This document shows positions 991-26,216 of a stretch of 52,200 nucleotides of DNA, piece by piece. This DNA comes from a virus (taxonomy: Duplodnaviria > Caudoviricetes). Every line of letters starts with the position of its first letter. Within the stretch, counting starts at the first letter, position 1. Made by a program: the position numbers and the translations under genes. The notes beneath the pieces were generated by a model that searched no databases, was not told the origin of the DNA, and saw only the letters and a program-made list of their open reading frames with translations. The stretch covers positions 1 through 52,200 of the IMG/VR virus record IMGVR_UViG_3300024261_000044; one strand, 5' to 3'.

Positions 991-3900
991 CTATACGCTA
1001 AAGCTTGTTGAATGCCTATTAATTTTTGTTTCTCCCTTAGTTGAACTACCTGTAGAGTCTTTTATAAGAACATCTTTACCAGTTTGCTCTCCGTTACCCA
1101 TAGTAATTTCATCCCCATTTTTGTCGAAAGCATCAAACGTAACGTCACCAGTACCCGTGTCTTTAGTCACCAAACCTGAAACTACAGTTACATTAACTGG
1201 CATCTGTACGAGAATTTGATCTCCCGGAGCAATGCCTCCACCACCACTTACTATGTCACTATATAGTTCTGTGCCTACAGGCTGCTTATTTTGTAAAGGT
1301 CTTACTTTTACATACCACATAGAAGGCGTATTAGTAGTTACGGGGGTAAGTTTATTTCCCGTTATAAATTTTGTGACACTTGTATCTGATGCTGAAAATG
1401 AAGGATTTTCTGTTTTTGAATAAACTACTTCAAATTCGTGTGCACTATTCTGACCATCTGAAGAGTCGTACCACCCACTGCCAACAATCTCAATATTAAA
1501 CCCAAAGACACTGCTCGTCAATGAAATGCCTGCTGCTGTAGTTATGTTCGGAAGTTCATGTAAATAATTTTGTGAGTAGGAAACAAAGCCTGACCCATCA
1601 TGATCCGGGTCATACGTTCCTGCTGCCATCCTCTCAAAGCTAGTTTCTAAGTATGAATTTTTACCTTTTAACTCAAAATACCATCTTTTACCAAGATTTA
1701 GTTTTACTATGTAATTTGGGTTTGTTACAAATTCAGAGTCTAACATATACGTTTCTACATATCCCGTAGGCTGTGAGGTATTTGTATCCAGCTCAATACA
1801 TTTTAATACGTACCCATCGGAGTACCTATCTACAATACGAGCAGTGGATGCTGAGTCTTGGTCACTTTGTGTAAAAGTTGTTCCTACGGTAATTTCAATA
1901 TCTGTACCATTATCTACTATATTAGTTATTTTGTAAGAATTAGAAGTTTCTTCTAAATACAGGGTCTTTCCGTCGGTTAGCAGTAAATCGTTACTAGACA
2001 TAGTAAAATGAGTAAGCTTCACAGTATTTCCTCCTACGGAAGGTGCCTGGCCTGCTACAAAACTTAGTGCGTCATAGTTCCATTTTAGAGAAATAAATCC
2101 AGCTTGTTCTTCTTTATTGGAAGTTGGGTATACGTCGTAAAGTCTGAAGTTGGTTAATGTTGTGGGAGTACCTGCTACTGTAGCCACTAATCTTTGGTTG
2201 TCAGTTCCAAGCCCAAGATAGAATTCTTCATTTGCCACGCCACTTATATATACATTAGATCCTACGTCACCTCCACCTAAAGTAAGTCCGTAAATAACGG
2301 CATCATGTAAAGTTGTCACTCCAGTAAATTCAGATGACTGGCCTATACTTGCTCCTCCAGTTCTAACCTCATTTGCTTCAATATCCAGTATATTCATATT
2401 AGCATACCCCCATTCAAAAGAGCGGGTACCGCTTAAAGTAGGGTTTTGGGCCAAATCTATGCTATCTGCTAAAATTTTGGGAGAGTATAAAACTCCGTCT
2501 GAACTTTTAAAAGAAGCCACCTGTCCACCAGGACCAGTGATTTCCATATCTGGCCCGTTTACTTGGAAGTTAAACCCACCTGAAGTAGCTATACCGCCTA
2601 AGTTAAAGTTTGTTACGCTTCCAGTATCATTAAAAAATCGCGTGTCACCTTTAACCAGTAATCTCGAATTTTTAGTATTTAAAGTCTTGTTTATGCCTAA
2701 TGATAAGTTTCCGGACCTGTCAAATCCTGCGACCATATTAGTAAAAGTTTGCCCGGATGCAGTAGGTATATTTAAATTTTTTATTGACGCTTCGTTTATT
2801 GTAGATGAATTACTAATATCTAAATTTTCTATAACCCCGTATTCATTATATAAAGTCTGTATAGATGCGGCCCCGCCAGAAACAGAAAGTCCACCATCCC
2901 CGACAATGTTAACTTCTTGAAGCTGTGCAAACCCACCAGTTAAATTTTGTATTGTTCCCAAGTTATCTACTGTGAGGTTCCTAGATACCTCTGTATCTTT
3001 TGAGTACATAGTATTAGATGCTTTTATATTTCCAGTAACATGTAGCATCTCTTCTGGAGATACGTTGTTAATTCCTATGTGACCATCTGAATTCCTAACT
3101 AAAATTCTATCGTTACTTCCAGTTTTTATTACTAAATTTGATGTAGAGTCTGTTTCAATAAAAGACTCGTTTGTACCTGTGTACATACTAACAGAGCTAG
3201 TACCTTCAGAATTATGGATAGTTAAAGCTTTCCATAAATTTGATGTTTGCTTAATATGTAAAGAAGATGTGTCTGTGGAAGAGGGTACATACCCTATACC
3301 TACAGACCCGTCTGTTTTTAAGTACAGTTGATTGTTAGTTACTGAGCTACTGTACACAGCTTTTAAAATTAAATCTTCGTTATATGAGCTAACCTTCCCT
3401 GCATTAATTACCACTTCTTTATCAAAATAGTATCTCGGCATGTCGGTATTAAAGTGAGATCACTCGCTATTCTGTGCACCAATAGTAGTGTACCCATACC
3501 TAGTTTGTAGTTTTACTGCACCACCCTGTTGGTCACCTTGTATACTCCCTCCAGTATGTAAAGCTTCTTGTGGGTTTTTATTGTTAATACCTACCTTACC
3601 GTCCCCAGTGATGGTGACTACCCCAGCAACAGAGCTTCCATTAGGTGATAAGTTTATAACGTCTGGAGAACCTTCTGTATAAAAAATACCGTGGTCAGGG
3701 CTGCTGGTAGAGTAAGCAATTCCAAATGTTGCGTTAGCTTGGCCTCCCATATACACTCTTCTAGACACGCTAGGGGTAAGTTCTATGTTACCGTCTATTG
3801 TTAACTCGGAAGTAGGCACACTAGTTTTTATTCCAACTTTTCCTTCACTTTTATCCACAATAAATACATTGTCAGATACTAGTATGTCATCACCAAACTC

Positions 3901-4647
3901 AACCTTACCTTGTTGCTTGTAGTTTCCAGTAGAATCCCTATCTTTTAAAATTACATCATTTTCGTTTAAAATACTCTTTGATAATTTCAATGAAGATAGG
4001 CCCCGTAAATCGATGACTCCTAATGAGCTAGATGTCCATGTTTTACTAGAAGAGTCCAAAAACGTAAATGTACTATTCTTTAATAGTCTACCTGTGGAAT
4101 CAGTTTTTACTATTGCTAACGGTATTTCATCTAAAGGGTTTACTATAAAAGCTGAATTTAAATTATCTCCTGAAACTAAAACTTTAATTGAGGGTAAAAA
4201 GGTATCAGTATATAATGTGTTTCTTTTAGAGTAAGGTGTTTCTCCAGATGTATCATATAAAAATGCATTCATTGCTGATACTGGATTACTCCCAACTTCT
4301 TGGAAGGATCCTTTTATTAAGTACGTAGTATCTGCTTGTGTTGTTACACCTAAATCCGGCAATGAAAAGTAAGTGCTTGCTTCTAAGTTTATTAAACTTC
4401 CATTATTTAAGTATGCTTTTCCCGGTTGAACTAAAAATTGAGTTGGGACACCACTTGTTGGCTCAGAAAAGATTTGAAAAGTTGAGTCTGAAAAAGGTAT
4501 TTCCCCGTTTACTACGTCAATTGGGATTGCAAAAGAATTAAATAATATGTTTAATCTTTTATATAGGTTAGATTGTACGGCAAATTGAAGATCGTCAAAT
4601 ACTTTTTCTAAATTTTGTACTGTTCCGGATGGTATTTTTATTCTCAT
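991..4647 (-). CDS. Tail fibre/virion structural protein, about 1218 aa with TGA=Trp (TGA at 3460)
   Basis: ORFs 3460..4647 and 991..3441 share a frame, joined as IGAQNSE*SHFNTDMPRYYFDK. Carries repeated GxVGIxxxxP..LxVxG fibre repeats and C-terminal FN3-like segments. Ends TAG. Confidence 0.8.
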
Positions 4648-4662
4648 TTTATTTTATCCTGT

Positions 4663-7386
4663 TTATATTGGGGCTATTCATTCTACTGTACAATTAAATA
4701 ATGCACAATACTCCCTACCCGATGTTTCATGCTCAACAAATGTAAGTTTTTTATAACCAGGAGAAGTGGTTTTATGCACACCTTGTAACGATCAGTATTG
4801 AACAGTATTACCGTTAGAGTTGAAATCAGATGTGAACGCTAGTCCTACTGTTACACCGTCTACTAGACACTTTATGAATGACTTAGCATTGTCAGCAGAA
4901 TTGTAATTTACTCCAAGATTAGCTATTATTCTGTAGTACCCCGCTTTTGGTCAGTAAGTGTATCTGGTACCCGTCGTTTTTTCAAATGGAGCAACCACAG
5001 TACTAGCATTTTCGGCAGAGGTAGAACTATTTCACCCAACTGCACCCGGACTATCTGTCATGAAGTGTCTACCGTTCCCGCTGTTATAAGGAACAATTAT
5101 TGTCGTGAAAGGAGCGTGATAAGCTGGACTTACGTCGCTAGGTTTAATTTGAAAAAGTTGTGATTGCACAAGACTTGCATCTTTCAAGTCATTCCCTCGG
5201 AAATCTATGCTCTTATTTACTTCTATATCAGAACTAGATGGAGAGGTTAAACTATTTATAATTAACGACTCAGTAACTGTTAGCTCACTTGCAGTAAAGG
5301 AATTAGATACGATTAAATCTTCTATATTTATGGTTCCGGCAGATACTATACCTTCTGCTTTGATTCTTCCGTTAACATGAAGCATTATATCTGCAGCTGG
5401 AGTAAACTCTTGAGAATTACTAATTCCAATCTTGCCGTTGTATGCTCTTAAGAATACATCATTGTCGGTATTAGATCCTCTTTTAAAACGTAAAAATGCT
5501 GACCCATCATCGTCCTGCATTTCTAGGACGGGACTACCCGCAATTGTACTTGTCATAATATAGGACGTTGGGTCTTGTACTCTAAAACCTAGGTTTAAGC
5601 TTGTCGAATACACATCTAACATTCGCTCTGGATTATTAGTATTAACACCTACCTTTCCAGAAGTATCAATAATAAACTCTGGTACGGAGTTGGCTGTTTG
5701 TTTAATTACATAATCACTTGCATCCCCGCCAGAACCGTTTGAGTCGTCCATACCCGTTAACCAATCTAGACTGCTATCACTATCAACAAAATTTACGGTT
5801 CTTTGTCCCGTACCTTTAATTCTTACAATAGAGTGGTCTTCTCCTTCAAAGACTGCAGAAACATCATCGTTGGAAGTGTCATTAGACAAGTACACATGAA
5901 GTTTACCTTCTGGGGTTGATTCGTTAATCCCTACTCGACCATCCCCGGTTATAGCTATGTCCTCCCTCTCACTTGTACTATTTACAAATTTTAAAGTACC
6001 GTTTTGGTTTTGTATCCTAAAGTCGTCTCCAGAAGTATCATGTATTTCTAGTCTAGCGTCTGTGTTAGAAATTCTTATAGACCCATTTACTTCTAAAGCC
6101 TGATTTGGGTCGTTAGTATTTATACCTATCTTTCCAGCATCAGTTATTCAAACTCGTTCAGCATTATTTGTTTTAAAAATTAAATTATTACTTTCCGTAC
6201 CTATTCAGTTGTAGCCAAACGTAGAGTCTTGGTCTTCAAAAGATATAAATGACCCTGTACCACTGTTTTTTACTCTCAATATGTTCCCAGTAGTGCTTGT
6301 TACGTCTATGTCTAAACCGCTCACAGTTGGTGAGACTGTTCCTATGCCTTGATTACCTGATACATATAGGTCATCTGATAGAGTAGATATACCAGTTACT
6401 CCAAGACTGCCGACTAAAGTTGAGTTACCGTCTACATTTAAATTGCTATCAAAATCCACATTACCGGTGGAAAGAAAAGTTCCATCTACTTTTGTATCGC
6501 CAGACACATGTAATTTGTAAGTACTAAGCCCACTATCTGTGTGTATGCCGACATTTCCACCTGCACTGAGTACTATACCATCCGTACTTCCGAACAATGA
6601 ATTCTGAATAATTCTGAAGGTACCGTTGTCATGTCTACCTACGTAGGATTTAGTTCCAGTACTGTCTGAAAATTTTACTGCTTTGTATGAAGAATTTTTT
6701 ATTGTTATATAAGAGCTATTATCAGAGCTCTCAAAAGTTGCAAGGTTATCACTTGAATCATAAACAGAAAGTGGGTCAGGTGAAATACTTGTAACACTAC
6801 TTCCTATGGAAAGGTTTTCTGACATTAGTACCTGTCCTTGAACATCCATTTTAAACCCAGATGTTAAAATATTTCCTTCTCCGAAAGTTAAAGTTTGTCC
6901 AGTTTTTACAAGTTTCACATCAGAATCAAGAGACACTTCTAAAGTACCATGTGGTTGGTTAGGAGTCCAATCTGTCGTTATACCGTTAGATCCTGAGATT
7001 GTAATAGTACTAACATTGTTCGTATCGTCTACAGATAACTCGTAGGAAGAATAGTTATTATCATTATCTTCTGGAGAATCAAACTTTATTAAAGTACTAT
7101 GAAGGTCTTTCCTACCTATATTTAAAATATTATCCCCAGCCACTCCCAGGCCAGTAACGGAATTATCGGATGTTATAGTTTTATTCTGTAAAGTTTGGGT
7201 TGCGCTTGTCCCGACAAGTACACTACTAGAAGGAGCATTAGGGCCTATCGCTTCGTAAGTTTCTGATGTTGAGTCATCTACGTCAAACACAGTTAAATCA
7301 GCATCGATACTAGTCATGTTACTATTCATAGTATTCATACCTTCTCTTGGTGTCATTCCTGACGTAATTAATGTTATATTTGCCAT
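4663..7386 (-). CDS. Tail fibre protein, about 907 aa with TGA=Trp (TGA at 6205, 6148, 5032, 4951, 4792, 4678)
   Basis: ORFs 6205..7386 and 5032..5895 plus the gaps form one frame with no TAA/TAG until 4663. Contains several GNVGI/GKVGV...LHVxG repeats. Ends ...CTVE*IAPI-TAA, 15 nt before the next ATG. Confidence 0.8.
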
Positions 7387-7412
7387 ATTTTTTTTCTTAT
7401 CCTTTGTCTAAA

Positions 7413-9320
7413 TTAAGGTAAATCTTCGTAAGGTAACTCCGCATCCCATAAAGTCCAGCTATTTTCTCCTCAGGTTGCTCACTCACTTGTGCCAGAAACT
7501 TTCACTAAGTGCTCTGTCTCAACCGAATTGTCTGAATCATAAGTTGTCAGTTTAAACTTATACAACCTATGAGTTGGAGGAACATTAGAAACGGTAGCTG
7601 ATAACTCCAAGCTTGTTTCATTAGTCATAGTAACCCCTAGGTCACTGCCACCATAACTTTCTATAGGCTCAACTAGTTCTCACTTATAGCTTAATATATC
7701 GTCTTCAGGGTCAGAAACCAAGCCCGAAAGTAAAATATTTGCTGAGGATGACGTAGGGTCATACCATTCAGAATCTGAGTAAGTAACTACTTCAGGAGGT
7801 AAGTTAAAAACATTAGCTATTAATCCTGGGGGTACTCTGTCTGTAATAAATTTATCTATAAATAACTTGTGTCCTTTGAATATGTTTTTTACACGGTTAG
7901 TAACTTGTATACCTAAAGTATGGTAGAACTCTTGAGGATTTGATACCTCTCCTGAATACCGACTTTCATCATCTATAATGCTTATTTTACCACCCTCGTT
8001 CTCGTGGTACGCACATTGATAATAAATAGTATTTGGTGTGTCTTTTAAGGGAGTAAAAAATACGTCCCCTACTTCGGACTTCGCATTCTCAACAAACCTG
8101 TTTTCTTCATCTTTTATGGGGTACCCACCTCTAATGTCTGAAGAAAAATAAAAAGCATGGTTGTTAGAATCTACTTCAAATTTATACCGTTTTCTTCTAA
8201 CTAATGACAAAGACTTTCTTTTTTCACCGTCTAGTGAGAATTGATTTTTTCCGCCATCATGATACCCAACGTCACCAATCTCTTTTATTGATGTTGTTAC
8301 TTTAAAGGTATCTCCATCTCTTGTTAGTATTCCAGATATCATAGAAGGATTGCTATCATAATCATACATTGATACCCCAGATATCAAAGAAGAAAATTTG
8401 TCTATTTCATCTCCCACTGATGGGGCGAAGTATGATTCATTTGTAACTTCATAAACTATGTCACCAGTTAATCCAGATATAGTAATGTAATTACTAGTAC
8501 TATTACTTGTTAAACTAGACACTGTTCCAGCCTCATAACTAAAAGGTACACCTAAAATAAGGGAGTATAAGTTTTGTAAATTTTTTAAAGTCGGGTGTTT
8601 CTTTGACGTAGAGTACATTGCATGAGATAACTTAGTTAGGTGTAAGGCCCATTCTTTTTGTTTTTCTAAGTAATTTTTATTTTCATTATTCCATCCACTA
8701 ATAAAGGGCTCGTACCGACCACTTAAAATTATTCTCTCTGGGTCAGGTTCTCCAAATGCTGAGAAAAATACCCCCGTTAAAGATGGGACGAGACTTATGC
8801 CCTCAACAGAGTAGAAGTTTTCACCATAGTTATTAGGCATTTGGTTTGTATTTAAATTTACTCCGCTCCCCGTTGTAGAATAAGTCCCAGCTTCACTTTC
8901 GTAAGAATTGATGTCAGTTAAAAATTTTAAATAGTGTAAGTTATGTATCTCGTAGTCTGTGCCCTCCTGTAAAACTTGCCCAGTACTAATTCCACTCAAT
9001 TCAGGAATTGATAAATACATATCATCTCCAGGTAGTTTATAATAATGCACACCACTAACCATACTCACAGTATTTTTTTCATCACCCTCAAAAGTTACAT
9101 CATATATTTGATGTCCGTGCTCTATGTACCCTCTAGATAAGTCTAAATATTGTGTAAGGTTAGCTTGATATAAGTCGTATGTTAGCCCCTCTGTACCCTC
9201 AAACAGTGCAATTCAAAAAGCTTCTATTCTTTCCTTACTTTCTTTATCAAGTTTACCGTAGAAAGTCCCTAAGATATCTCATAAAGACGAAACATTAATA
9301 TTTGGGTCAGGTGAAAACAT
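7413..9320 (-). CDS. Baseplate wedge/structural protein with cupredoxin-like and PKD-like domains, about 635 aa (TGA at 9279, 9213, 7680, 7479, 7470)
   Basis: ATG 9320 directly follows the upstream TAA. MFSPDPNINVSSL*DILGTFY...IEAF*; PKD-type SDPEDDILSYK*ELV; ends SE*AT*GENSWTLWDAELPYEDLP-TAA. Confidence 0.75.
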
Positions 9321-10940
9321 TTAAACCTGTGATATTCCTACTAAACTTTCATCGTTAGCATAAAACCTTCCTACTTGAGTTATAGACATCTCGTATGCTT
9401 GGCCTCTTACTGATAAGACATCGCTCACAAACTCTGTATTAAAAGATTTCACAGATACGTCCATGTCTAAATTTACATGAGTAGCACCATTAGCATACAG
9501 TAAGTCTACAAAGTCTGACTTGTCGAAAGAAGTCCTTTCTAGAGAATTTATATAGTCTTTAAACTTATCTTTCATAAGAACTTCATCTACCCCCCCAGAG
9601 TACTCTAAATCGTTGATTTGAATTATATGTGGAGGCATTGCTTTTACTAACATATCGGATGCCGGAAATTTAAAGTTTTCTCCAATTATTAAGGAGTTAG
9701 CAGAGGATCCAAATGACCAGTGTCTGTAAGTTATATCTACCTCTGTCCCTACACTATCCTCCTCAAACAGTATTAAGAAGTTTGTTTTGTTGGAAAATGC
9801 AAGTGACTTGTCTACAATAGATATATTGTACGACGACGGGTCAAACTCTTCTTGAGAATAATGCTCAGTTAATGAAAGTATCTCCACAACATAAGGGTCG
9901 AAAGAAGATATGTTACTTGTAATTATTTGGTTACTGTCACTGACTGTGCCAGTAGCTACACCTACCTGGTAATTACTAGGGTCATGGATGTATATGTCAG
10001 TAGAATTCCCTCTATGTATTCCGTCTAAGTTAGTATTGGAAACTTTTATATAGTATGTAACCAGTGAGTGCTCAACGTCTCTATCTAAGTCTGCTCCAGG
10101 GTATTCAAAGTCTGGGCCTGAGTTAGCAGCGGTTGCGGCTAAACTAATAAAACCGTTGTCATCTTTATACCAGCTAATTGGTTCCACAGATGATTGTATC
10201 TTTTGCAAATCTCTATCGTCGTCTATAGTATGAGAATGGGAGCCTAGTGATTCTCACTCAGAATTTTTTACATTTCAAATGCCTAGCTTTACCTTACTAT
10301 GTGGGTAGGTTACTTTATCTGATTCTGCAGCATATAACACGGGATCATACCCTACTCCGTAATAGTCTACAGTTAATGGCCCACTGTCCGGAAACTCTAA
10401 GCTATCCAATTTAAATTTAAATAGCTGCATAGGAAATGTCTCTTCGAAAGACTCAATAATTAAGTTATCATAATACCACTCAGAATTTCTAGTTTGCGCA
10501 ACTGCTAATCCAAAGTGTTCCCCCTTAGCAACAGGTATGTAAGGTGGGTATGTTTGACCTCTATTGATAATTGCAGTGTTATCTGCAAACTCAGTAAATT
10601 CTTCTGAATCAAATATCCAAGCTTTAGTAGCCATCTTCGGCCAAACCTTCATTTGAAAATCATACCATTTATTAGGCTCTATCCAAGATTTAGCTGCTTG
10701 AAGGAATTGATTTTTACCTGATGTCTGATCAAACATCTGATCATGGCCAACCCACACCTCTTCCTGAAGTATATCGTTGTCAACTAAGTACACATTATAT
10801 TTTCAAAAGTTTTTATTGTCTTTTATCTTCCCTATGTACCCAGATGCTTCCTTTACTGTCATTCCAGTATGTTCTGCAAACACAGCTAAGTCACCCACGT
10901 AATTTGGGCTATAAGGGTCTTTTGATGTATAAACTGGCAT
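9321..10940 (-). CDS. Baseplate protein (probable C-terminal partner of the J-like protein), about 539 aa (TGA at 10803, 10275, 10254)
   Basis: ATG overlaps the upstream stop (TAATG) and has a GGAGGT Shine-Dalgarno. Joins ORFs 10275..10793 and 9321..10208 via KLGI*NVKNSE*ESLG. Confidence 0.75.
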
Positions 10941-12562: not shown

Positions 12563-12572
12563 TTCATGTCCT

Positions 12573-13001
12573 CTAGATTGTCACTAGTATTGAGTTGTTT
12601 GCATTTGTTAAAACATTTATTGAAATAAGTCATCCACCAAAAGTCTCATCGTACTCTATTGATTCCACAGACAACTCCTGTAAGGTTTCATAATCTGATA
12701 AATTTGAGTAATCATTTTGTTCGTTTATAAGTTCCTCTTCTACATCTTTTAAAAGAATAGAAAAAGTATTTTTAAATTGTTTTGCTTCATCTAAAGAGAG
12801 AGCAGTAAACAACCCATAAAAATTTGTACCTATTTTGGTATTAAAAGCGTCCGACCCCTCTATTGTAAATATACGCTTTATTATCCTTTGAATCAAGTTA
12901 GAAACTCCGTCTACTTGCTCTGGGGTACCGGGGAAGAATGTTACCATTCGACTATCTGCGGACCCTACGTAGTCAATCAGTTTAAAATCTACTAATCCCA
13001 T
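12573..13001 (-). CDS. gp25-like baseplate wedge/sheath initiator, about 142 aa (TGA at 12630)
   Basis: VDGVSNLIQRIIKRIFTIEGSDAFNTKIGT is gp25-like. Readthrough adds *LISINVLTNANNSILVTI-TAG, completing the terminal beta strands and ending 10 nt before the next gene. Confidence 0.7.
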
Positions 13002-13003
13002 AA

Positions 13004-15100
13004 TTAATTTGCTCCTATTGCTCTAGCTGTCGCTAGTTTTTCAATAACGTCCTTTACTTGTGTGTATAATTTATCTATTAAAATGTACGCATCTTCTAAC
13101 TCATTCATAGTATCTTCAGCATCCTCATTCCATACTTTAAAATCAGCAAGCCCTTCTCCTAATCCCATAAGCTTTGCTGATGCCTCCTGTGCTTTTTCTC
13201 TCACTATTCTGGTAGGATCCCCTATTGGAAACCCCTCCATAGTTTTTATATTTAAACATCCCAGTAACTCACCTAAAGCACTTCCCTCTAAGGAGTCACC
13301 ACTTAAAGTAGCGACTATGTTACTTATATTTCCCAGAGATAATGGCCCTTTCATAGACTCTGGCATAGTAGATATTAAGTCGTCATACTTCTTTTTTAAT
13401 TTAGGGAAGTCATTAACTTGCTCTACAGAAGACATAAAAGATAAACAATACCCGTACAAAGCATCATCATGCAATATTTGATTGGTGATACTACTTTGCA
13501 CACTTTTTAATTGCCCGATAGTTCTTGAGTTTACTCCACCTAAAACAACACCCATTATTCCCATACCTACAGGAGTTAATGATACTTGAGATTGTTTAAA
13601 AGCATTTTTAGCAGATTCTTTTTTATTAAACGTATCTTTTATATAAATTCTTAAATTTTCAAACCTTTCCTGTGCTACATCAAAAGATTCTAGATCATCT
13701 TGGGAAGAAGGTACAGGGTTTCCGTCTTCATCCGCTTTTTCACCTATAACAGCTTTTAGTTGTGTTTGAGCGGAAGTTAACTTAGTTACCCAAGACCTTT
13801 TTTTTCCAAATGCTCCTATTTTTGTTTTTGTATCCTTATCCAAAAAACCTTTAACATCTACGCTCACGTCAGAAATCGTACTTAAAGCTGGACTTAATAA
13901 CAGAGTAGTAGAACTTCCTAGAATCTTTAGTATTCCCCAATTAGATGAGAATAAAGTTATGGCGCCATTAGCAACGGATACAGAACCCATTACTCGTTTT
14001 CAATGCGTATTCTTTTTTGAAGGATCACTCATGTAATTCATAGCATGTTCTGTTTCTTTTTTTCCAGCAATAGATGACCCGATTTGGTTTGAAAAATCAT
14101 TCGAAGACCCGCTACCTAAATTTAGCATGTCTCTTGTATACTTAATAGCAGTAATCGGCATTAACTCTACTAGCCTATCTATAACCCCTGAGATTGAGCT
14201 CTCAAGTAAAAATGTTTGTAAATCTTTTGGGAGTACTGGAGTAACTTCAGACATAAAATTTGTAAAGGCAGTATTTTGTTCTTCTATGTACGACTCTTTT
14301 TCTGCATCTCCTATATTTGATGGTACACTAAAAAATCTGTCTTGTATATCATTCTTAAGTAATGTAGGTGATAAAATTTCAACAGAAGAAACATTCATCC
14401 CATACTTATTAAAAATAGGTATAATTTCATCTTTTCTTTTTTTAATCTCTTTGAAAAAGTTTCCCGACAGCGAATCTATTGCTTCTTCAAGACTAGTAGA
14501 AGCAGTCTTTAAATAAGAAGTTCTTGGGAAAGACCCATTTTGTGACTTCATTCTGTTTATTTCACCACTAACGATTTTGCCTGCTCTTTTTATGTAATAT
14601 TGACTACTAGTTATTTCTTTGAATGGGTCGTCACCTCGCCTTCCGTGTATAGTATTTTTTATACTTAGAAGTACAGTAGCAACAGATGCGACGTCATTCT
14701 TTAAAATAAACCCAAGCTCTTTTCTTTTCTCTAGCTCAGCCATTAAATGTTGGACTGCGTAATATTGAATAATAATTTCTATCCTAGCTGCTGAACCTAA
14801 AGCAGCAGCAACTGCTCCAAGAACAGCTCCGAAACCTTTTGACATTAGATCGCTAACAAAACCATTTACATAGTCTCTAGCTACATCCTTTGCCATGTGA
14901 GCAACTATGATTGATAAAGCTGCAAGTACTGACCCACCGGACTTTCCCAATAAGTCATCTATAGCATCTTCGACTCTTTCCACCATCTTAGCAGTTTCAT
15001 CGGCAAGAACCTCTAAGATACTTGATGGATCACATGGATCCTCTATTTCAAATCCTAGGTTACCTAAGGTTAGTGCTAGTGTCTCAAGAGGTGCAGCCAT
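13004..15100 (-). CDS. Hypothetical helical structural protein, about 698 aa (TGA at 14000)
   Basis: ORFs 14000..15100 and 13004..13990 are in frame, joined as KKNTH*KRVMGS. Confidence 0.65.
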
Positions 15101-15822
15101 TATATCAGTCCTTTAATATCCTTAGCAATTTTATTCTGACGTTTTTTCATATCTCCCGCTTTTAATCCTAACTTAGACCTTAGGTTCTTGGACGTCATTC
15201 GTGGCATTCCGCTCAACCCAAATGTATGTTCCATTATTTTTTTATCTACAGGATCTGCATCAAAATATACAAATTGTATTGCCTGTTTTAAAATAGGGTC
15301 CACGTCCTCATTTCTAGCATAAAAATAAAAACCACCGGCATCATCAGAGTCCTGCAACTCAGCCATAGATAAATCCTTTCTCTGTTCCAGCTGCAATCTT
15401 TCTATTTCACCGATAGCAACATTCATAGAATCAGATAATTCCTCTACAGTTGGTGGCCTACCTTTACTGTCTTCTAAATTGTCGTATATAGTATTATATT
15501 TACCAATTATCAAAGTCCTATTCTCAGGGATATGTCCTACATTCTGGTAATTCATAACACTACGACTTAATTTTTTTAAGTAGTTAATTACATGAGTATT
15601 TAATTGAGACATTGTAGGGTCATAAGTATCAATTGCCTCGCCTGTTAACCTCTTTGCCTCCAGCTCTATGTAAGACCTTGGAAGCCCAGATGCGGCCCAT
15701 TTATTTGATTGCATCATAACTATAGGCGTTAATGACTGCACTAACTCTATCTTGGCCTGTTTGTCACCACCTTTGTACCTATTAAAAAGTTCTAATTCTT
15801 GCTGTTTTGAGTATGTGTTCAT
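15100..15822 (-). CDS. Phage sigma-70-family sigma factor (putative late sigma)
   Basis: ELELFNRYKGGDKQAKIELV (region 1.2/2.1), AIDTYDP, GRPPTVEELSDSM (region 3), C-terminal HTH-like region 4. No TGA. Confidence 0.75.
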   Translation of the reverse strand: MNTYSKQQELELFNRYKGGDKQAKIELVQSLTPIVMMQSNKWAASGLPRSYIELEAKRLTGEAIDTYDPTMSQLNTHVINYLKKLSRSVMNYQNVGHIPENRTLIIGKYNTIYDNLEDSKGRPPTVEELSDSMNVAIGEIERLQLEQRKDLSMAELQDSDDAGGFYFYARNEDVDPILKQAIQFVYFDADPVDKKIMEHTFGLSGMPRMTSKNLRSKLGLKAGDMKKRQNKIAKDIKGLI

Positions 15823-15838
15823 AAATTTGTCTGATTAT

Positions 15839-16972
15839 TTATTTTATATGTTTTGCTTTTAATGAGTATAACTTCTCTGGTAAAGTATGTAACTTATTTA
15901 TTAACTCAGAAAATTTAAAGGAGTCATCTTTTATTTCGTCATCGGCTATACTTTCTATAGCACTAAGGATAGTGGTAAAAAACGTTTCTACGTTAGACTC
16001 ACTTGCTCCAAATACTACAGCCAAAATTGGTGATATATACGAGTCTGAATTTGAGTAAAATTTTAACACCGCCTCTTTACATGCCACTGCCCTTTCCCTC
16101 ATCTCTTTTACGATGTTAATTGATGGATCAATCTTTTTAAATATATCATCAATTTTCAAAAAGTACTCTGGCCCATAATCCACAAATTCCCTAATATCTT
16201 GCCCGCCAAGTACCTTATCAGAGTACATGTTGAGAGTTATAAAGTTATTTAGTGGGCCTAGTATTGAGTCTATTTTTTTAACGTACTGCGAGATTACCTT
16301 ATCTATGTCTACAGACGGGACGTACATGTTTCTCAAATCATTCTCAGATAATACCTCAGGTGCGCCGGCATCGAGGCTGTGGTTTGTGACTACTCAAGAC
16401 ATATTAAAAGTAACAATTTTATCTGCATTCGACGAGTAGGTCGAATTAAAGGAAAGAGGATACCCCTCGACCTGATGATTACCTATAACAATGTATGCTA
16501 TCTGGTTATTTTTTACTAGTTGTGTGCCCCTTATTACGTCATTATACATTTTTATTAAGCTACTACCATGAAAGTACTCATGCTCTCTCTCACTCCTAGT
16601 AGACCTATAGTCTACTGCTGCTCCAGAAAAGTTATATACTCTCGCAGAGTCCCCAAAAAAAGAAACACTAGATGCTCCAAACGTATTTAATATTTGTGAT
16701 CTTTCTTGAAGGTTGAAAGAAAATGCCTGCAATGTAAATTTATTAGTCTGATATAAAATTTTATGCCCACCTTTTACATAAATATGGGCCCCTATGCCCT
16801 GCTCCTCTGAATTTATAGACTCAGCAAGATGTGTAGGAGACTCTTTTTTACTTAAAGGGATAAGTATATTTTTATGGTCCCCAATATTTTGCATAGCTTT
16901 GGGGAAATCAAGATTCGTGCTGGCTGTACCATTTGCTAGTGCTTCTCCCTGGGTTTTAAGCTTAGATGACAT
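15839..16972 (-). CDS. Tail tube initiator/baseplate-like protein, about 377 aa (TGA at 16394)
   Basis: ORFs 16394..16972 and 15839..16336 are in frame, joined as VTFNMS*VVTNH. FTLQAFSFNLQERSQILNTFG...FFGDSARVYNFSG is tube-fold-like. Confidence 0.6.
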
Positions 16973-16975
16973 TTG

Positions 16976-19678
16976 TTACCTCACTAAATTTATTTTATTT
17001 GATTTACGTTCTGAATTTCTAATAAAGGCTTCTAATACGTGATTTAACCTTAAGTAAGAATATGGTTTATCTATATTTTCGCCTAAAGTTTTTTCTACCT
17101 GGGATGGGTCTGCTTCTTTTGCATCGCCTTCTTTTTTACTATCAAAAGCACTAATAGCCTCTAACCACTTATCAATCTTATCTTGTATTTCTTGTAAGGT
17201 ACTCTTCAAGCTTATAACTTCTAGACTCGTACTTGCATGTAACTTCGCATTATTTTCCTCTTCAAGAGTTGGAATGACTCTCCCTATTCCCATAATTGTG
17301 TCTTCATACGTTTTCTCTATTCCCATAATTGTGTCTTCATACGTTTTTTTACTTCGTCTTAAATTCTTTATCTTTATGTTTACTTGTCTCACAGTGAAAG
17401 AACTTTTGTCGTCACTTCCATGCTCCGTGACTACAAAAAGATTATCTGGAGAGTCCGGTGTTGTGTTTTTAGCTTTTTTATGAATATTTATATCATGTAA
17501 AATAGTAGAAAGTTGCTTATAATCTGTATCAGCACTGTCAGGGTAGTTATTTTGAGCACCAATAAAATTTAGATAATCTCCCTGAGTTATTATAGGACGA
17601 TAGTTTACTCTAGACATAAATGACTGAGACGCAGTTGTGCCAGCCACTTTTTTATATAATTTTTTTAAGTTTATTATAGACTGGTAAAGATATTTACTGT
17701 ACTTAAGAGAGTCCGATTCATTGCTGTCATTTGGTTCGAATCCCTTTATTGATATAAGTGGGTAATTGTCTTCTTTGCTGCCCCTTATGTAGCTAAAAAT
17801 AGATTGGTCATATCTGTCAGTTTTAACAAATTGGTCGTCAGGTGCTGCTGACCTAGTTTTTAAAGTTTCATTTATTTCTTTTGAGTAACCCCTATTATCT
17901 TGTAATTTTTTTCTCTCCGATATTTTTCCAAATAGCATGTACGTATATATATCTGTACCTACGTTAAAATAGCTATATAACTCGTTATCAAAATAACCAC
18001 TAAAAGAGACAGGGGCCATATCAGCAGAGAAATCATTTATAGCATATTTTTCTCAAGATGATTCCCCTTCACTACCTGACGATGGCGAGAATATTCCTGA
18101 AAAATCATCATCATAAATTAGTACTGTATTTTTGAAAGTAATGGTACTTTTAGCCCCACCCTGGGCAGATATGGAAGTTTGTATGTCCGTTATAACCCCG
18201 ACAATCGAGGGCTCACCCGGATCTAGTATAACTGCTGGCATGCCACAAAACCTATTTGGATTTCACACGGCATCTAATGTAAGAGACCTGAAGGCAAATT
18301 TTTGTTTAGCAAAAGATTGAAGAGATAACTCTCTAATTATTTTTACACCTTCAGACCCTTTTCCTATATAGTCTTCTCGTGTTGTGGGTCTTTCATCGTC
18401 CCCGTCTGAAATTACGTTCCTTATCAGCCCTGCTATTCCGACACCATTCAGTTTCATCCTATGGGGACGTATGCCCCTATATGTCTCTTCTATATTATGT
18501 GAAGTAGATAACGTAGGATTTTCATTTACAGTCGAAGCTTGAGGCCCAATTTGGACTTTTGAGGCAGGTAAAGCAAGGTTTTCATACACAGTTGAAACAG
18601 ATGGTACTGCATAAATCGTACTATCTGTGTAGGTCTCTCCTTGTTTAGGAGAAAAACTGTAAGTTAATTGAGTATAAGCTCTTGTAGGTTCAGACATGTA
18701 TTTCCTATCATACCTAAATGCTGAAACTTGGTCTGAGAAAAACACGTTACATAATGCCGGAGGACTCCATTCTTGTGACGGAGCTACCAAGCACCTGAAG
18801 GGTACTTTAGAGTCACCACCTGACGGAGAATACCCCGAAGTTGGCGACGCAGGTGCTAGTAATGAATATCTTATTTCCTTCAAAATAGTCAGTATTATAT
18901 ATAGTAAACTTGTTTTTCTAGCACTTTGTCCGAGTGTTTTTAGAACTTTTACAAGAAGAGCATTCTTCATCCCATCTAAGTTAGACATGTTTGGAAAAGA
19001 TATAATACTATCTTTTAACCCCATAGACGAATTTAAAAATTGGAAGAATAAGTCGGTACCTTCAAAGCTTGTTAATATATCTTGAAGAAGAGAATGTCAG
19101 TCTGATTTATCCTCTCCCTCCGAATAGGACTGTATTAGTTTCTGTATAGTATTTATAACTCCTCCTAACATAGCTATACTTTCAAAACTTTCTGATGACG
19201 TATTATTATTATCAGGTATATCTCCAGAATTCTTATACATACTTGAGGTTATTTGCCCGGAGTCAGTTTCAGTATTTATAAAATTATACATACCATGTTC
19301 ACTGATAGTTAGGTCATCAAACGGTACAACATCTTTAGAAACATGCTCTATATCACCTCACCTAACTATTAAGTTAGTACACGATAGGCTAACTGATCTA
19401 GATGATCCTGTCTTTTGATACCCTACAGAATTAACCTCCCCTTCGTATATCAGAACGGATTCTGATGCTCCCTGAGGAGTAGTATTGGGGCCAAATAACT
19501 GGACTATAGTTCCGGGTAAAATTCTGAGTGCGCCTGTACCTACTCCAAAAGAAAGTTTTAGAGCTGGAAATCCGGATTCATTCTCTGAAATATTTGCAGA
19601 GGCAAATGGAACTTTAACTCCTTCTAAAAAAAGTTCGAAGTTATCAAATAAGTTAATAGTTGGGTTAGTTATTTTCAT
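16976..19678 (-). CDS. Baseplate hub-like protein, about 900 aa (TGA at 19358, 19097, 18263, 18053)
   Basis: Five track ORFs lie in one frame separated only by TGA. N-terminal FELFLEGVKVP...IYEGEVNSVGY and LDAV*NPNRFCGMPAVILD resemble hub/late-control-D proteins. Position is directly downstream of the tape measure gene. Confidence 0.65.
17284..17347. repeat. In-frame 33-nt tandem duplication (31 bp identical)
   Basis: ctattcccataattgtgtcttcatacgtttt at 17284 and 17317; encodes KTYEDTIMGIE KTYEDTIMGIG. Confidence 0.95.
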
Positions 19679-19681
19679 ACG

Positions 19682-22600
19682 TTAGAACTCTACCTTTAAT
19701 TGCCCATCTACAAACGTAAATTGCTTTTGAGACAACTCTACAGCTTCTCTTATCCTACCTTGCGTGTCAACAGCTTGTGCGTCCATGGCGCTTATGGCAC
19801 CATCCTTTACAAATTGTCGTAAGTCTTCTTGTCAGTCTTTACCCCCAAATATTGAACTTTCTTTAGCTAAGTTGTCTTTCATTTTATCATCTATCTGCTT
19901 CATTGTCTCCTCTTTTTCCCCCGAAGACATATTTATTACACCGCCGTCATTCTCTACTATCTTCCCGCCCTCGGCAACAGTTTGGTACGACAATTGCTTT
20001 ATAGCTTTTTCTTGGTCAGCACTAAGTCTTTGCCCATCAAAAACACTGGTAAACATTTTTCTGGCTTTTTGTAGATCCTCTGCAGCCAGCCCAGCTTTAA
20101 ATGAATCTATTTCTCCTTTATTATTAGTCATTTCTTCTGCTACCTTATACATTGCTGCTGAACTTTCTTTGCTACCAACTGCTGCCACATTCACAGACAA
20201 TTCATTTGGATCCACGCCTTTATTTATTAACATCTTCATGAGATTTGTGTACTCTTCTTCACTTTCTATATCTCCGTACGCTTCTGTAAATCCCAGAATA
20301 TCGCTTACTTCACCTACTAATCCTTCCTCCCCCATTTTTTCTAAAGCATCCTTTAGATCTCCACCGTCGAGCTGCAGTTTAGACTTCTTCATGGAGCCTC
20401 CTATGGATTTTATTATACTTTCCCCTTTGGTTTTGTTGTTGTAAGCAATGTCTATATTTTTTTGTAGCTGTTTTTTTCCTACATCATACCCAATTGTTTC
20501 GGACGCCGGCGGAAGAATACCCTTCTTTCCTTCCGACCCTGCATTAAGACTAGAGTGAACTCCCATCCTTATGTCGCCGACCTGGCCTTCCTCACCCTCT
20601 TTTATATGATCTTGCAAGGTTCCAAAAGTTACTTCGCCAATATTTGATCCCTCAGCCAGTAGATCATTGTCGTTAACATACGTTCTTACAGCTGCGTCCA
20701 TACCTTCCAATGACCTCTTGAAGCCTCCTTTTTTTGTAGCATCTGCAACTTTTGCCATTATGCTGTAGTCAGGGTACTTCTCATCGGACTTAGCATTTTG
20801 AGCGTCCTGTAGTTGTTGAGAGTAATTTAAACCTTTTCTTAAATCAGCAACTGTTGTATTTTTAAGTGTAAAGTCTCTTTTGTAATCAGCCCAATCCCCA
20901 AGAGCGTCTTTTCCCTCTTTATCTTGGGTTGCAAATACCTCAGCTTCATCTAAATTTAGGTAGTTACCGTCTGCGTTTGACCTTATGTATTCTTCTCTGG
21001 TTTCCTTATATTCATCTGAGTTTTTTCTTTCAACGTCAGACACAACATCAGATGCAGTTAATATACCTGTACCATGTTTTAACTGCTCCTCAGAATACCT
21101 ACCTGTAAACTTGGTTGTAGTTTTATTTCCCCACCAGTCAGATATTCCTTCAGAGATATCCCTTCCTCCACCTACTAGGTTTCTCCCTAATGTTCCTAAT
21201 GGGGCAAATGTTCTTCCTGTGGCTTTGCTTGCCGCCTCAAACCCTGTTGCTATCCCGTGAGCTACTACACCAGACCTAGATGAACTGTTTAAGTCTTGGT
21301 GTGCGTTAATAGCGCCAGCCATAGTTTGTTGATTTTGATTCTCTGATCCAAAAGTAGCATCCATCATCATGCCTAATCCAGTTCTTGCGTCAACACCCTT
21401 CATTAACATTGTAGCGCCTAAAAATGCTTCAGGAGTGAAAGTCTGGTCAATACTATTAAAAAAACCAACAACATCTGATAAGGCAGCATCTGCCCTATTT
21501 TGTGGTCCCATAGCTTGAACATTTCTTCCCTGGCTTGCTATAGCAGAAAACATATTTATCGGGTCTTGCATTAGGTGGCTTGCACTATTTAAAACATCTT
21601 TAGGCATCATTGGGACATTACCGCTTGTGCCGAATTCCGCTGCCTGCCAAAATCCCAGGGACCCTGGACCTTGCATCATAGATGCATTCTGGCTACTTGA
21701 AACCATACTTGCCCTATCTCCCATACTCATGCCTCTATTTACTTGTCCAGCAAAACCTTCGTATTGAGCCCCAGACCTAAGTATACTTTCTAAACCAGAT
21801 TGAAAAGACTGTGCGGGAGTCACTAAGTTTTGTGCTCCTAAAAGACCCATAGCTTGCATTTCATTACCAGCATTTGTCACAGTGTTTAAAAATTGGGTGG
21901 GGGACTGTCCCATGGACGTAGCTGTTCCTGCAAATTGTGCGCCCCAAGCTCCAATACCGTCAGTACCTTGAACCCCAGATTGTTTTATTGAAGCCATAAT
22001 TTGAGTAGCTTCCTGCATTGTAGTATTAAAAGCATTTTGAAATAATCTTAAGTTACTAACAACATCATCTGCTTCTTTTCTAAATTCTTCTGCGTTACTG
22101 ACTCCTTTAAATCCGCCTGCAGCACCAAAGTCCATGACAGCTGACTGTGCGACTTGACTATCTATACCTTGTAGCCTATCCGTTACCCCGTGTGGTCTAC
22201 TTAAAATACCGTTCGCCATCCCAATGGCATCATCCATTCCTATATTACCAAAAGAACTAGAAGCTAATGATTGTAATCCTCCGGCTAAACTTTCTGCTTG
22301 CCTAGCTGGTGCCATTATAGCTTGTTTAGCTAAATCTTGTCCTCAACCAGCGAGACCTCCGATTACTGCTCCGGCTGGGCCACCAAGCATTAAGCCGCCA
22401 AGAGCTCCACTGAACTTGCTAAAGTTATCCATACCAAAGTTGGTGACAGATTGAGTGAATTGATCCGCGTTAGCCGACCTATATTCATTGTACCCAGTTG
22501 AGGAGTTCGGGTCATACCCTATGCCTAGGCCGCCAGTAGCTTGGCCTAAGAAAGAAGAATTTGATATATTTTGCTCTCTCGTTGATAGAGAAAAGTCTCC

Positions 22601-22945
22601 AGCATTTGTGGCCATGCTGCCAGTCATTCGCTGAAACCCAACCTGTGCTACGTCAGAAACTCTTGATGCAAAGTCTTTTACTTCATTTAGAGAGTTATTT
22701 ACAGTATTAGCAAACGTGTTTTGAAACTGACTTGTAGACTGCAAAACTTCAGGCACAGAAAAAGATGGAGGTGTGCTTGCAAATCCTGCTGGAGTAGCAG
22801 CAGCGCCTCCTAGAGATGAAAATGCAGACGCCCCACCTGACTGTGAGTTCACAGCTTGAGATACCCTTTCTCTTATACTATCTAGCTGACCAGCTAAATC
22901 AGAACTATCTAGCTCAATTTTATACTTTAATACTTTTTCTGCCAT
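19682..22945 (-). CDS. Tail tape measure protein, about 1087 aa (TGA at 22343, 19832)
   Basis: Ala/Gly/Gln/Met-rich and helical, with GGPAGAVIGGLAG*. Follows the chaperone pair. Readthrough ends at TAA 19682, 3 nt before the next ATG. Confidence 0.8.
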
Positions 22946-25486: not shown

Positions 25487-25500
25487 CAAAGGAAACTAAT

Positions 25501-26212: not shown

Positions 26213-26216
26213 TACT

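Follow-up and report, generated by a model that had tools for sequence, protein, structure and literature searches.

Late genes of a cosmopolitan marine tailed phage with in-frame TGA codons at tryptophan positions

Introduction

Stop codon reassignment in the late genes of phages has been described mainly for gut communities. In the genomes described by Borges et al. (10.1101/2021.08.26.457843), e.g., of the Agate and Jade clades, TGA is read as tryptophan. According to these authors, TGA codons at tryptophan positions are concentrated in the structural genes, the replication genes keep to the standard code, and genes no longer end in TGA. Standard-code genomes occur among the close relatives, and the recoded state is patchy on the tree. 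The genomes have a size of about 200 kb with many tRNAs, and the suppressor tRNA is located next to the lysis cassette. All these features were found again in the phage analyzed here, the last one in its relatives.

A suppressor tRNA(UCA) has been reported in only 15–35% of the code-4 genomes, so that such a tRNA is supportive but not obligatory.

In crAss-like phages a standard-code block is likewise combined with an opal-reassigned late block (Yutin et al., 2021, PMC7886860; Mgcod, 10.1101/2022.06.29.495998). These are podoviruses, whereas the phage described here has a contractile tail and encodes DNA polymerase A and an AEP primase. Outside guts and rumen, alternative codes were found in 0–0.65% of jumbo phages, with a threshold of 10% for the gain in coding density (PMC13037316).

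A third system is represented by the phages of Mycoplasma and Spiroplasma, which share code 4 with their hosts. They also read TGA as tryptophan and lack TGA stops. There, TGA should occur in every class of genes.

Here, positions 1 to 52,200 of the record IMGVR_UViG_3300024261_000044 were analyzed. This stretch of 52,200 nt is called the window in the following and represents about a quarter of a myovirus genome of approximately 200 kb. The phage is a new marine member of the known group with late-gene stop codon recoding. It differs from the gut phages of Borges et al. in its origin from seawater, in its light recoding (28 of 81 late tryptophan codons, with about 5 points gained in coding density), in that neither RF1 nor a tryptophanyl-tRNA synthetase (TrpRS) was seen on the window fragment, and in an extra arm of the tRNA(UCA) of its relatives, which is not known from the description of the suppressor tRNAs given there.

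The Phage, Its Relatives and Its Habitat

The source is a widespread marine tailed phage with a contractile tail, as seen from the sheath and baseplate J genes. It was found in at least 20 marine runs from at least 16 studies among the runs listed. Three relatives were used for comparison. G001 is an independently assembled contig of 64 kb (rated 31% complete) with 80% identity to the window. Between the two, 42 of 43 genes could be paired, and the orthologues are 69–94% identical over their full length. G002 is syntenic with the window, 97% complete and recoded. G005 uses the standard code, and 45 of its 192 called genes (23%) end in TGA. In a tree of the neck protein, recoded and unrecoded lineages of the family interleave.

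Cultured relatives are distant. A megablast search of positions 1–25000 against 50,697 phage records gave no cultured relative, and tblastn of the sheath protein against cultured phages returned six remote partial matches (27–30% identity), so that even the nearest ones align over no more than the C-terminal third to half of the sheath, with at most 30% identity. A search for direct terminal repeats gave none, and the completeness of the record is thus not demonstrated. Extension of the genome via the last G001 gene in IMG/VR recovered G001 itself only. Likewise, no contigs overlapping the window ends were found, so that no position can be given for the tRNA of this phage. For the host, the neck-protein family gave no relative in species-representative genomes, and an Atlas search with the sigma factor returned mostly viral clusters and no host signal.

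In-Frame TGA Codons and Coding Density

Translation of the window with table 4 resulted in 44 frames, of which 43 are complete genes and one runs off the left end. A preliminary description, made from the sequence of the window, had listed 28 in-frame TGA codons in 11 genes, and exactly these 28 positions were recovered. All 11 genes are located on the minus strand (Table 1), with 24 TGA codons in nine genes at 991–22945 and four in two genes at 50401–51754. In-frame TAA or TAG codons were not found in any of the 44 frames. Of the 43 complete genes, 34 have TAA and nine have TAG as the stop, and none has TGA, for which the binomial probability at the rate of G005 is 1e-5.

It had further been claimed that the readthrough genes end in TAA or TAG close to the next start and fill the apparent intergenic gaps. 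This holds, as the gaps at 991–22945 are 0–26 nt long under table 4 and 99.7% of the region is covered, compared to 89.2% for table-11 fragments of at least 80 aa. The proposed comparison of both tables was made over the entire record with rough gene calling, and the coding density rose from 0.902 (table 11, 54 gene calls) to 0.952 (table 4, 44 gene calls). With about 5 points, the gain stays under the 10% required in some surveys, and hence the frequency of such light recoding in the ocean is probably underestimated.

The statement that standard annotation misses the true proteome also proved correct, since the 11 virion genes are split into about 30 fragments under table 11. Databases thus contain wrong gene calls for tail-fibre and baseplate proteins of a marine phage with global distribution. 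According to the preliminary description, stop-recoded phages are known mostly from guts. The kind of phage is indeed a known one, but its source here is seawater. Late-gene opal recoding, which is rarely reported outside guts, is therefore not confined to them.

Table 1. Features of the window. TGA codons are read as sense codons; site codons in G001 refer to the TGA positions given.
Position	Strand	Product	Length (aa)	In-frame TGA	Site codons in G001	Evidence and remarks
991..4647	-	Late protein, distal tail-fibre-like position	1218	1 (3460)	TGA	G001 orthologue 85% identical; no family match in family profile searches
4663..7386	-	Tail fibre protein	907	6 (4678, 4792, 4951, 5032, 6148, 6205), vs 2 TGG	TGA 2, TGG 2, TAT 1, AGG 1	PHROG tail fibre families, E = 2e-8 and 4e-6
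7413..9320	-	Late protein with PKD-like domain	635	5 (7470, 7479, 7680, 9213, 9279)	TGA 3, TGG 2	PF22352 (K319L-like PKD), residues 527-602, 28.9 bits (cut-off 27); TGA 7680 inside the domain
9321..10940	-	Late (baseplate-region) protein	539	3 (10254, 10275, 10803)	TGG, TGG, TGA	G001 orthologue 92% identical
10940..12562	-	Baseplate J-like wedge protein	540	0		PF04865, E = 3e-10; phrog_6, E = 2e-21; G001 orthologue with one TGA facing a TGG of the window
12573..13001	-	Small baseplate protein	142	1 (12630)	TGG	phrog_975, E = 7.5e-4 (weak match)
13004..15100	-	Late protein, no family assigned	698	1 (14000)	TGA	
15839..16972	-	Late protein, no family assigned	377	1 (16394)	TGA	
16976..19678	-	Large late protein, putatively hub-like (from position)	900	4 (18053, 18263, 19097, 19358)	TGA 2, TGG 2	33-nt tandem duplication at 17281-17346
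19682..22945	-	Large Gly/Ala/Ser-rich late protein, putative tape measure (from size and position)	1087	2 (19832, 22343)	TGG, TGA	
24104..46766	+	Replication/nucleotide-metabolism block, 23 genes		0, also none as stop		Pfam matches: helicase, peptide deformylase, AEP primase, exonuclease, RecU, class II ribonucleotide reductase, JAB, ThiF, DNA polymerase A
26579..28057	+	CCA-adding enzyme (tRNA nucleotidyltransferase and HD domain)				PF01743, E = 1e-19; PF01966
43838..44656	+	Phage sigma-70 family factor				PF04542, PF04545, PF04539; nearest Atlas clusters mostly viral
46830..50161	-	Three late genes		0		Include tail sheath 47518-49155 (phrog_2839, E = 1e-8)
50401..51186	-	Conserved neck/head-tail region protein	261	3 (50512, 50767, 51124)		phrog_2806
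51188..51754	-	Late protein	188	1 (51452)	TGG	

TGA Codons at Tryptophan Positions

The comparison with homologues supports tryptophan as the amino acid encoded by TGA in the late genes. At the 28 TGA sites of the window, G001 has TGA (14), TGG (12), AGG (1) or TAT (1), i.e., TGA or TGG at 26 sites, and the two exceptions are both located in the fast-evolving tail fibre. In the reverse direction, the 26 TGA codons of G001 face 14 TGA, 11 TGG and one TTT in the window. TGA and TGG are thus freely exchanged. An alignment of homologues had been suggested as a check on the assignment, and in the neck protein the columns of the TGA codons 50512, 50767 and 51124 contain tryptophan in 30, 16 and 34 of 34 homologues; the second one is aromatic in 29 of 34. 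The four TGG columns of this protein match these values, with tryptophan in 20–31 of the 34. At 51452, tryptophan is found in 36 of 46 related loci. Across 79 related loci, the TGA codons of the subjects within the alignments face W in 51 of 81 cases and Y, H or F in 26. Similarly, the TGA codons of G002 face W in G005 at 28 of 51 sites, and its TGG codons show a like profile (90 of 155). The peptide contexts that had been quoted in favor of tryptophan are all present in the translations.

Translation continues beyond the TGA codons, as judged from the pattern of substitutions. Among the differences between the window and G001, those at the third codon position prevail on both sides of the first TGA of each gene (positions 1:2:3, 775:477:2215 downstream and 241:116:832 upstream).

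Early and Late Genes

The labels early and late rest on gene functions. In the late genes 28 TGA and 53 TGG codons were counted, versus 0 and 79 in the 23 plus-strand genes (7201 codons; Fisher p = 4.6e-10), although these 23 early genes contain 457 TGA triplets out of frame. The replication block contains TGA neither as sense codon nor as stop and thus reads identically under both codes. The designation as a code-4-type phage therefore fits the late genes, the only ones with TGA as sense codon, but not the genome in a uniform manner.

Based on this, a two-state genetic code can be proposed, in which about one in three tryptophan codons of the late genes is TGA. The early genes would be read correctly whether the cell takes TGA as stop or as tryptophan. 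The host would use the standard code, and an opal-decoding tRNA-Trp(UCA) would be supplied by the phage late in infection from the unsampled part of its genome. Until this tRNA has accumulated, in-frame TGA codons would truncate the virion proteins, resulting in a translational lock on the late functions as in the model of Borges et al. The sigma-70 family factor may drive late transcription, and the CCA-adding enzyme of the phage might mature or repair the opal-decoding tRNA. Taken as a whole, with TGA as tryptophan in the late genes, a standard-code host and a phage-supplied tRNA-Trp(UCA), we consider this explanation probable at roughly 85%.

Decoder tRNA in the Relatives

The window contains no tRNA, and neither the window nor the 64 kb of G001 gave a suppressor tRNA, a release factor or a TrpRS, so the decoder is inferred and not seen. 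A gene for a CCA-adding enzyme is present on this record, which has no tRNA gene. A lysis gene was not found on the fragment either. The relatives have 21–32 tRNAs each. In G002, ARAGORN predicts 29 tRNAs, including a tRNA(UCA) between the holin and amidase genes, and in the standard-code G005 there are 21 and no tRNA(UCA). In recoded relatives the tRNA-Trp-like tRNA(UCA) adjoins the endolysin gene, directly upstream of it or of the gene after it, and the tRNA-then-endolysin/p356 order was found in six lineages of the family. Two recoded lineages (L361/L383 and L376/L377) have no tRNA at the endolysin position, and an Rfam scan (E up to 0.01) of L361, L376, L363 and L364 gave no tRNA.

UGA is the leakiest stop codon and is naturally read by tRNA-Trp. 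Instead of a dedicated suppressor, the host tRNA-Trp(CCA) could misread it, maybe with a phage factor, and lead to low-level late readthrough. The lack of any tRNA in the 52 kb window and about 12 kb of additional G001 sequence is in line with this, as are the two recoded lineages lacking it at the usual site. However, the tail fibre gene contains six TGA codons and one late gene of G001 contains ten, and the yield of full-length protein falls as a power of the readthrough rate, which makes leaky readthrough implausible for structural proteins. There is also no local readthrough signal around the TGA codons: the following base is A (11), G (11), C (4) or T (2), resembling the base after TGG, and no favorable sequence context was found. 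Together with the tRNA(UCA) of the recoded relatives this renders leaky readthrough improbable.

In G002, nothing pointed to a further decoding route. This genome also has a tRNA(CUA), but with TAG recoded (code 15) the coding density hardly rises (0.797 to 0.802). There was also no sign of Hirsh-type suppression by its tRNA-Trp(CCA), the cloverleaf of which seems to be of the usual type with an anticodon stem of 5 bp.

Genetic Code of the Host

The host itself might have code 4, as in Mycoplasma or Spiroplasma, and the phage would then simply share it. Such a host would suit the loss of TGA stops (0/43) and the record without a suppressor tRNA; moreover, 22 of 27 cultured phages assigned to table 4 infect such hosts, as reported by Cook et al. 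(2024, PMC11210395). Yet it gives no reason for the split between the early genes, with TGA at 0 of 79 tryptophan codons, and the late genes with 28 of 81. It also does not agree with the standard code of the close relative G005, with the interleaving lineages in the neck-protein tree, or with the tRNA(UCA) which the recoded relatives encode themselves. Code 4 is not known to us from any free-living bacterium of the marine plankton, and such a host seems very unlikely. A standard-code host is inferred indirectly from the relatives, in particular from G005 with its 23% TGA stops.

Other Amino Acids and Assembly Errors

TGA might stand for an amino acid other than tryptophan, i.e., glycine (code 25), selenocysteine or cysteine, or serine via a Sec-like tRNA. 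Some code-25 phages are reported in Borges et al. (10.1101/2021.08.26.457843), and the tRNA(UCA) of G002 has a long extra arm and scores 48.5 bits with the Rfam tRNA-Sec model (cut-off 47). Ordinary long-arm tRNAs of standard-code relatives reach 45.7 bits, however, and the G002 tRNA has its acceptor, anticodon and T arms in common with tRNA-Trp, so that, also in view of the Trp-like TGA columns, its reading as tRNA-Sec was dismissed. None of the 28 TGA sites faces a Gly, Cys or Ser codon in G001, and the TGA codons of G002 face serine at one and glycine at none of 51 sites. Among the 79 related loci, glycine is found in three rows at one variable column only and serine in six. Glycine is absent from each of the three TGA columns of the neck protein (0 of 34 homologues). 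Selenoproteins are likewise not indicated, given up to six TGA codons per gene, no cysteine at the tested columns and no conserved downstream context. An amino acid other than tryptophan is thus hardly credible.

The TGA codons are real DNA. Raw reads with TGG at these sites had been named as a possible sign of systematic assembly error. Marine contigs from four further runs (three of DNA, belonging to other studies, and an RNA library) were compared over 3400–22400, where they retain all 24 TGA sites and show no TGG; the contigs from the RNA library are taken as sequence and show neither transcription nor translation. Of about 41 variant places in this region, none of the 40 listed falls in the 24 TGA codons. 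Sequencing or assembly errors or decaying pseudogenes, for which nothing was found in favor, can practically be dismissed, since the independent, 80% identical assembly G001 shares TGA at 14 of the 28 sites, the four other runs agree, and purifying selection persists downstream of the TGA codons.

A Five-Arm tRNA-Trp as Possible Decoder

The interleaved recoded and standard-code lineages, together with the candidate decoder tRNA in the lysis cassette, make it testable how a standard-code cell charges a UCA tRNA with tryptophan. Phage tRNA(UCA) can insert tryptophan at UGA in vitro, as described for UGA-suppressor tRNA/TrpRS pairs in PMC12636597, where 9 of 31 tested ones worked with E. coli enzymes alone and others needed a phage TrpRS. 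The tRNAs of that study were predicted with tRNAscan-SE, those longer than 100 nt being flagged as low confidence, and its account of them, unlike the tRNA(UCA) found here, does not mention a second anticodon-like arm.

The unusual tRNA(UCA) of the relatives, which copies the Trp anticodon loop in its extra arm, is the most novel lead of this analysis. It has a Trp-type acceptor end (A1 or G1 paired with U72, G73) and a tandem-duplicated anticodon arm, resulting in five arms. In the first copy the anticodon is UCA, and the second has a Trp anticodon loop with the consensus xUCCAAx. Tentatively, UGA could be decoded by such a five-arm tRNA-Trp in this family and in many other TGA-recoded phages, and the phage of the window would then carry one next to its endolysin gene, but we regard this as rather doubtful. 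More speculatively still, the second arm would let the host TrpRS, which reads the CCA anticodon, charge the UGA-decoding tRNA, either as an identity mimic or by an alternative stacking of the two arms, and a phage TrpRS would then be unnecessary.

In the descriptions of recoded phages considered here no five-arm tRNA is mentioned, although the clade and tRNA lists of Borges et al. and PMC12636597 might include the phage group or the tRNA. The reversed order of the two arms did not occur in 41 pattern matches. The motif was absent from all 61 long-arm tRNAs for Leu, Ser and Tyr of the same loci and present in 21 of 27 long tRNA(UCA) that were selected solely by their anticodon arm. The extra stem covaries and was recovered by RNAalifold unaided in 52 distinct sequences, although part of the five-arm tRNA collection came from searches selecting for the motif. 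Finally, under code 4 the coding density rises by 4 points or more in 25 of 28 loci hosting such tRNAs.

Genomic Context of the Recoded Genes

The entire virus record comprises the 52,200 bases of the window. A terminal repeat was searched for in it and not found, and at least its left end cuts through genes. The genes are arranged in two virion blocks, termed late, and an intervening replication block, termed early, with both labels derived from gene functions. The GC content ranges from 34 to 42%, and the GC skew flips with the coding strand.

Features of the window and the evidence for their assignment
Feature	Position	Strand	Evidence or content
Virion block 1	1-23723	-	structural-gene matches
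Virion block 2	46830-52200	-	structural-gene matches
Tail fibre	late blocks	-	PHROG, E = 2e-8
Baseplate J	late blocks	-	PF04865, E = 3e-10
PKD-domain protein	late blocks	-	
Tail sheath	late blocks	-	PHROG, E = 1e-8
Replication and nucleotide metabolism, 23 genes	24104-46766	+	between the two virion blocks
Early-block products		+	helicase, peptide deformylase, CCA-adding enzyme, AEP primase, exonucleases, RecU
Further early-block products		+	class II ribonucleotide reductase, JAB/ThiF pair, sigma-70 factor, DNA polymerase A

No close kin of the window was found among the cultured phages searched. A relative from IMG/VR, G001 (64,007 b), is collinear over the whole window at approximately 80% nucleotide identity. 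Its completeness of 31% (CheckV) implies a genome size near 200 kb. At least 20 marine or seawater runs, drawn from no fewer than 16 studies, contain the stretch 4600-10950, with a share of words of 0.59-0.99; the phage is cosmopolitan and, over 4600-22400, very uniform.

In-Frame TGA Codons in the Late Genes

In the preliminary description, 28 in-frame TGA codons had been reported in 11 genes, and a script found exactly these coordinates, with none missing and none in excess. Reading TGA as tryptophan (table 4) joins the minus-strand ORF fragments to tightly packed genes, as had been claimed. In the region 991-22945, the coding coverage rises from 89.2% under the standard code (table 11) to 99.7%, and adjacent genes are spaced by 0-26 nt. 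All 43 complete genes end with TAA (34) or TAG (9), which also agrees with the earlier claim.

Recoding is heavier in late genes outside the reach of the window, as an 839-aa late gene of G001 (L003:2981-5497), which lies past the window's right end, contains 10 TGA and 11 TGG codons.

A 900-aa late gene of the window carries an exact-frame 33-nt tandem duplication (17281-17346), the copies of which are 97% identical and encode a repeated 11-residue peptide. Within this duplication, at 17313-17318, contigs from other runs have breakpoints or joins.

TGA Is Read as Tryptophan

Four independent lines of evidence agree that TGA encodes tryptophan in the late genes of the window. For the comparison with G001, 42 of the 43 genes could be paired, 51845-52162 being without an orthologue. 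Opposite the 28 TGA codons of the window, G001 has TGA (14), TGG (12), AGG (1), and TAT (1), and the 26 aligned TGA codons of G001 face TGA (14), TGG (11), and TTT (1) in the window. A TGA codon in G001 lies opposite 11 of the 124 TGG codons of the window. These exchanges show that TGA and TGG behave as synonyms.

The proposed check of homologue columns was performed for the neck protein (50401-51186) using 34 homologues with 32-91% identity. Its three TGA columns hold tryptophan in 34, 16, and 30 of these homologues, some of which may themselves be code-4 gene calls. The column with 16 tryptophans is aromatic in 29 of 34, and the TGA columns are indistinguishable from the four TGG columns of the same protein. 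The same tryptophan pattern was seen at the DNA level in 80 related IMG/VR loci, most of which have no TGA inside the alignments.

The differences to G001 located after the first TGA of each gene are distributed over codon positions 1, 2, and 3 as 775:477:2215, and those before it, with the same bias, as 241:116:832. This persistence of the third-position bias indicates that the parts downstream of the first TGA are under protein-level selection.

The alternative that the TGA codons are systematic assembly errors, which had been raised beforehand, was checked with contigs from three DNA runs and one RNA library over 3400-22400. They differ from the window at about 41 places in 19 kb, and none of the 40 listed places falls inside the 24 TGA codons of this stretch. 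Readings as glycine, cysteine, selenocysteine, or serine are supported neither by the G001 codons nor by the homologue columns nor by the alignment of the relatives G002 and G005. A special sequence context around the TGA codons of the window was not found.

Early Genes Are Readable Under Both Codes

The late genes contain 28 TGA and 53 TGG codons vs. 0 TGA and 79 TGG codons in the 23 early genes (Fisher p = 4.6e-10); out of frame, TGA occurs 457 times in the early genes. Moreover, TGA is not used as a stop in any of these 23 genes. In the standard-code relative G005, TGA terminates 45 of 192 crudely called genes, and at this rate the chance of finding no TGA stop among 43 genes is P = 1e-5 and among the early genes alone P = 0.002. 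Since TGA occurs neither as sense codon nor as stop, the early genes fit both codes, whereas the late genes need TGA to be read as tryptophan. The same early/late pattern is described for gut phages by Borges et al. (10.1101/2021.08.26.457843), who interpret it as locking late and lytic functions at the level of translation.

On the early strand, a glycosyltransferase gene (34112-35287) is poorly conserved, with 50% identity over 209 residues to its G001 counterpart. The latter contains one TGA opposite a TTT of the window, the sole early-strand TGA seen in the window and G001.

The window is a well-supported, real case of the known recoding of late genes. It differs from the published cases in its seawater habitat and its light recoding, and its relatives differ from them in an unusual tRNA. 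According to a jumbo-phage survey (PMC13037316), alternative codes are used by 5.8-8.8% of the jumbo phages from gut and rumen, compared with 0-0.65% of those from elsewhere, based on a 10% density threshold, of which the window phage would fall short.

Recoded and Standard-Code Lineages in the Family

The neck-protein family search retrieved 80 IMG/VR loci. Homology-supported in-frame TGA codons were identified in the group of G002 (7 TGA vs. 2 TGG in 418 aligned residues), in L042-L044 (6), and in L025 and L037 (3-4), while most other loci have none. In a maximum-likelihood tree of 42 distinct neck-protein sequences, all 12 rows with TGA lie within one clade of 24, interleaved with 12 TGA-free rows. 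Well-supported branches force at least three state changes, with labels from a single TGA being weak.

The recoded relative G002 (205,518 b, 97% complete) shows synteny to the window, and its protein identities to it are 23-70%, mostly 30-60%. Its coding density gains 10 points under code 4, whereas that of G005 (179,902 b, 89% complete) falls. Tryptophan of G005 lies opposite 28 of 51 TGA and 90 of 155 TGG codons of G002, which is the same profile. Another tRNA of G002 (105393-105469; L122:5393-5469) is of normal length and has the amber anticodon CUA, although code 15 hardly alters the coding density of this genome.

Position of the Putative Decoder tRNA

Neither a tRNA nor another Rfam family was found in the window or G001. 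The window encodes a CCA-adding enzyme, and its relatives possess 21-32 tRNAs. In G002, a 97-nt tRNA with UCA anticodon is located at 70650-70746 (L120:10650-10746), outside the main tRNA cluster and flanked by a holin (PF11351) and an Amidase_2 endolysin. No tRNA(UCA) was found in G005.

The order of tRNA(UCA), endolysin or p356, and an actin-like volactin gene recurs in six distinct lineages. In five of them, every locus gains 5-29 density points under code 4; in the sixth, the gain is 5.5-6.4 points for two long loci and 1.2 for a short one. A tRNA at the endolysin position is absent in two other recoded lineages and also in lineages with little or no code-4 gain. The window and G001 lack lysis-region genes, which fits a tRNA on a part of the genome that was not sampled, and we infer that the decoder of the window phage is encoded there.

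The volactin gene of G002 (L120:12744-13724; PF25216, E = 3e-70) was also found in 70 other IMG/VR loci. Both in the window's phage family and in numerous further large phages, its position immediately after the lysis genes is conserved.

A tRNA(UCA) With a Fifth Arm

The tRNA(UCA) of G002 resembles the tRNA-Trp(CCA) of the same genome in the acceptor, anticodon, and T arms and has an additional hairpin in the variable region. A scan of IMG/VR with its 15-base anticodon arm alone, covering at least 80 loci, yielded at least 36 tRNA(UCA), and 27 of these, among the matches listed, are 93-100 nt long. Among the same matches, 21 of the 27 long tRNAs contain TCCAA in the extra arm and the remaining six resemble genuine tRNA-Sec. 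This is the only unbiased frequency, because the other scans for further examples selected for the motif itself. The motif was found in none of 61 long-arm tRNAs for leucine, serine, and tyrosine of the same loci, and no such tRNA was among the 41 hits of a control pattern in which the order of the two loops was reversed.

In 36 distinct examples, the motif lies within a 7-nt loop, mostly CTCCAAA (16), which is the anticodon loop of tRNA-Trp, or GTCCAAA (16). The stem closing this loop has 5 bp, and many different pair types occur at each of its positions. When 52 distinct sequences were aligned, U72 and G73 proved invariant and the first base was A or G. From these sequences, RNAalifold predicted the extra stem unaided, with double changes in 27, 16, and 5 sequences at three predicted pairs. 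The code-4 density gain is at least 4 points in 25 of the 28 carrier loci of at least 5 kb. In the window's family, the tRNA is located directly upstream of the endolysin gene or of the gene following it.

Judging from sequence, TGA-recoded phages carry a tRNA-Trp-like tRNA(UCA) in which the anticodon arm is tandemly duplicated, the second copy having a CCA-type loop (xTCCAAx). That this five-arm tRNA decodes UGA is possible, with the odds rather against it. The second arm could mimic an identity element for TrpRS; alternatively, its presence could reflect stacking of the arms in two different ways. A description of this five-arm architecture was not found in the accessible text of the literature searched.

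Further Observations in the Early Block

In the region 42010-43282, an 82-aa ORF precedes first a gene resembling JAB deubiquitinases and then one resembling ThiF/E1; by its gene content, this stretch looks like a phage version of a ubiquitin-like conjugation set. For the class II ribonucleotide reductase (36380-39361), the alignment with the G001 orthologue covers no more than 652 of 993 residues, with 63% identity, and nucleotide similarity to G001 is absent over approximately 36.7-38.5 kb. One of the two copies may carry an insertion, e.g., an intein or intron.
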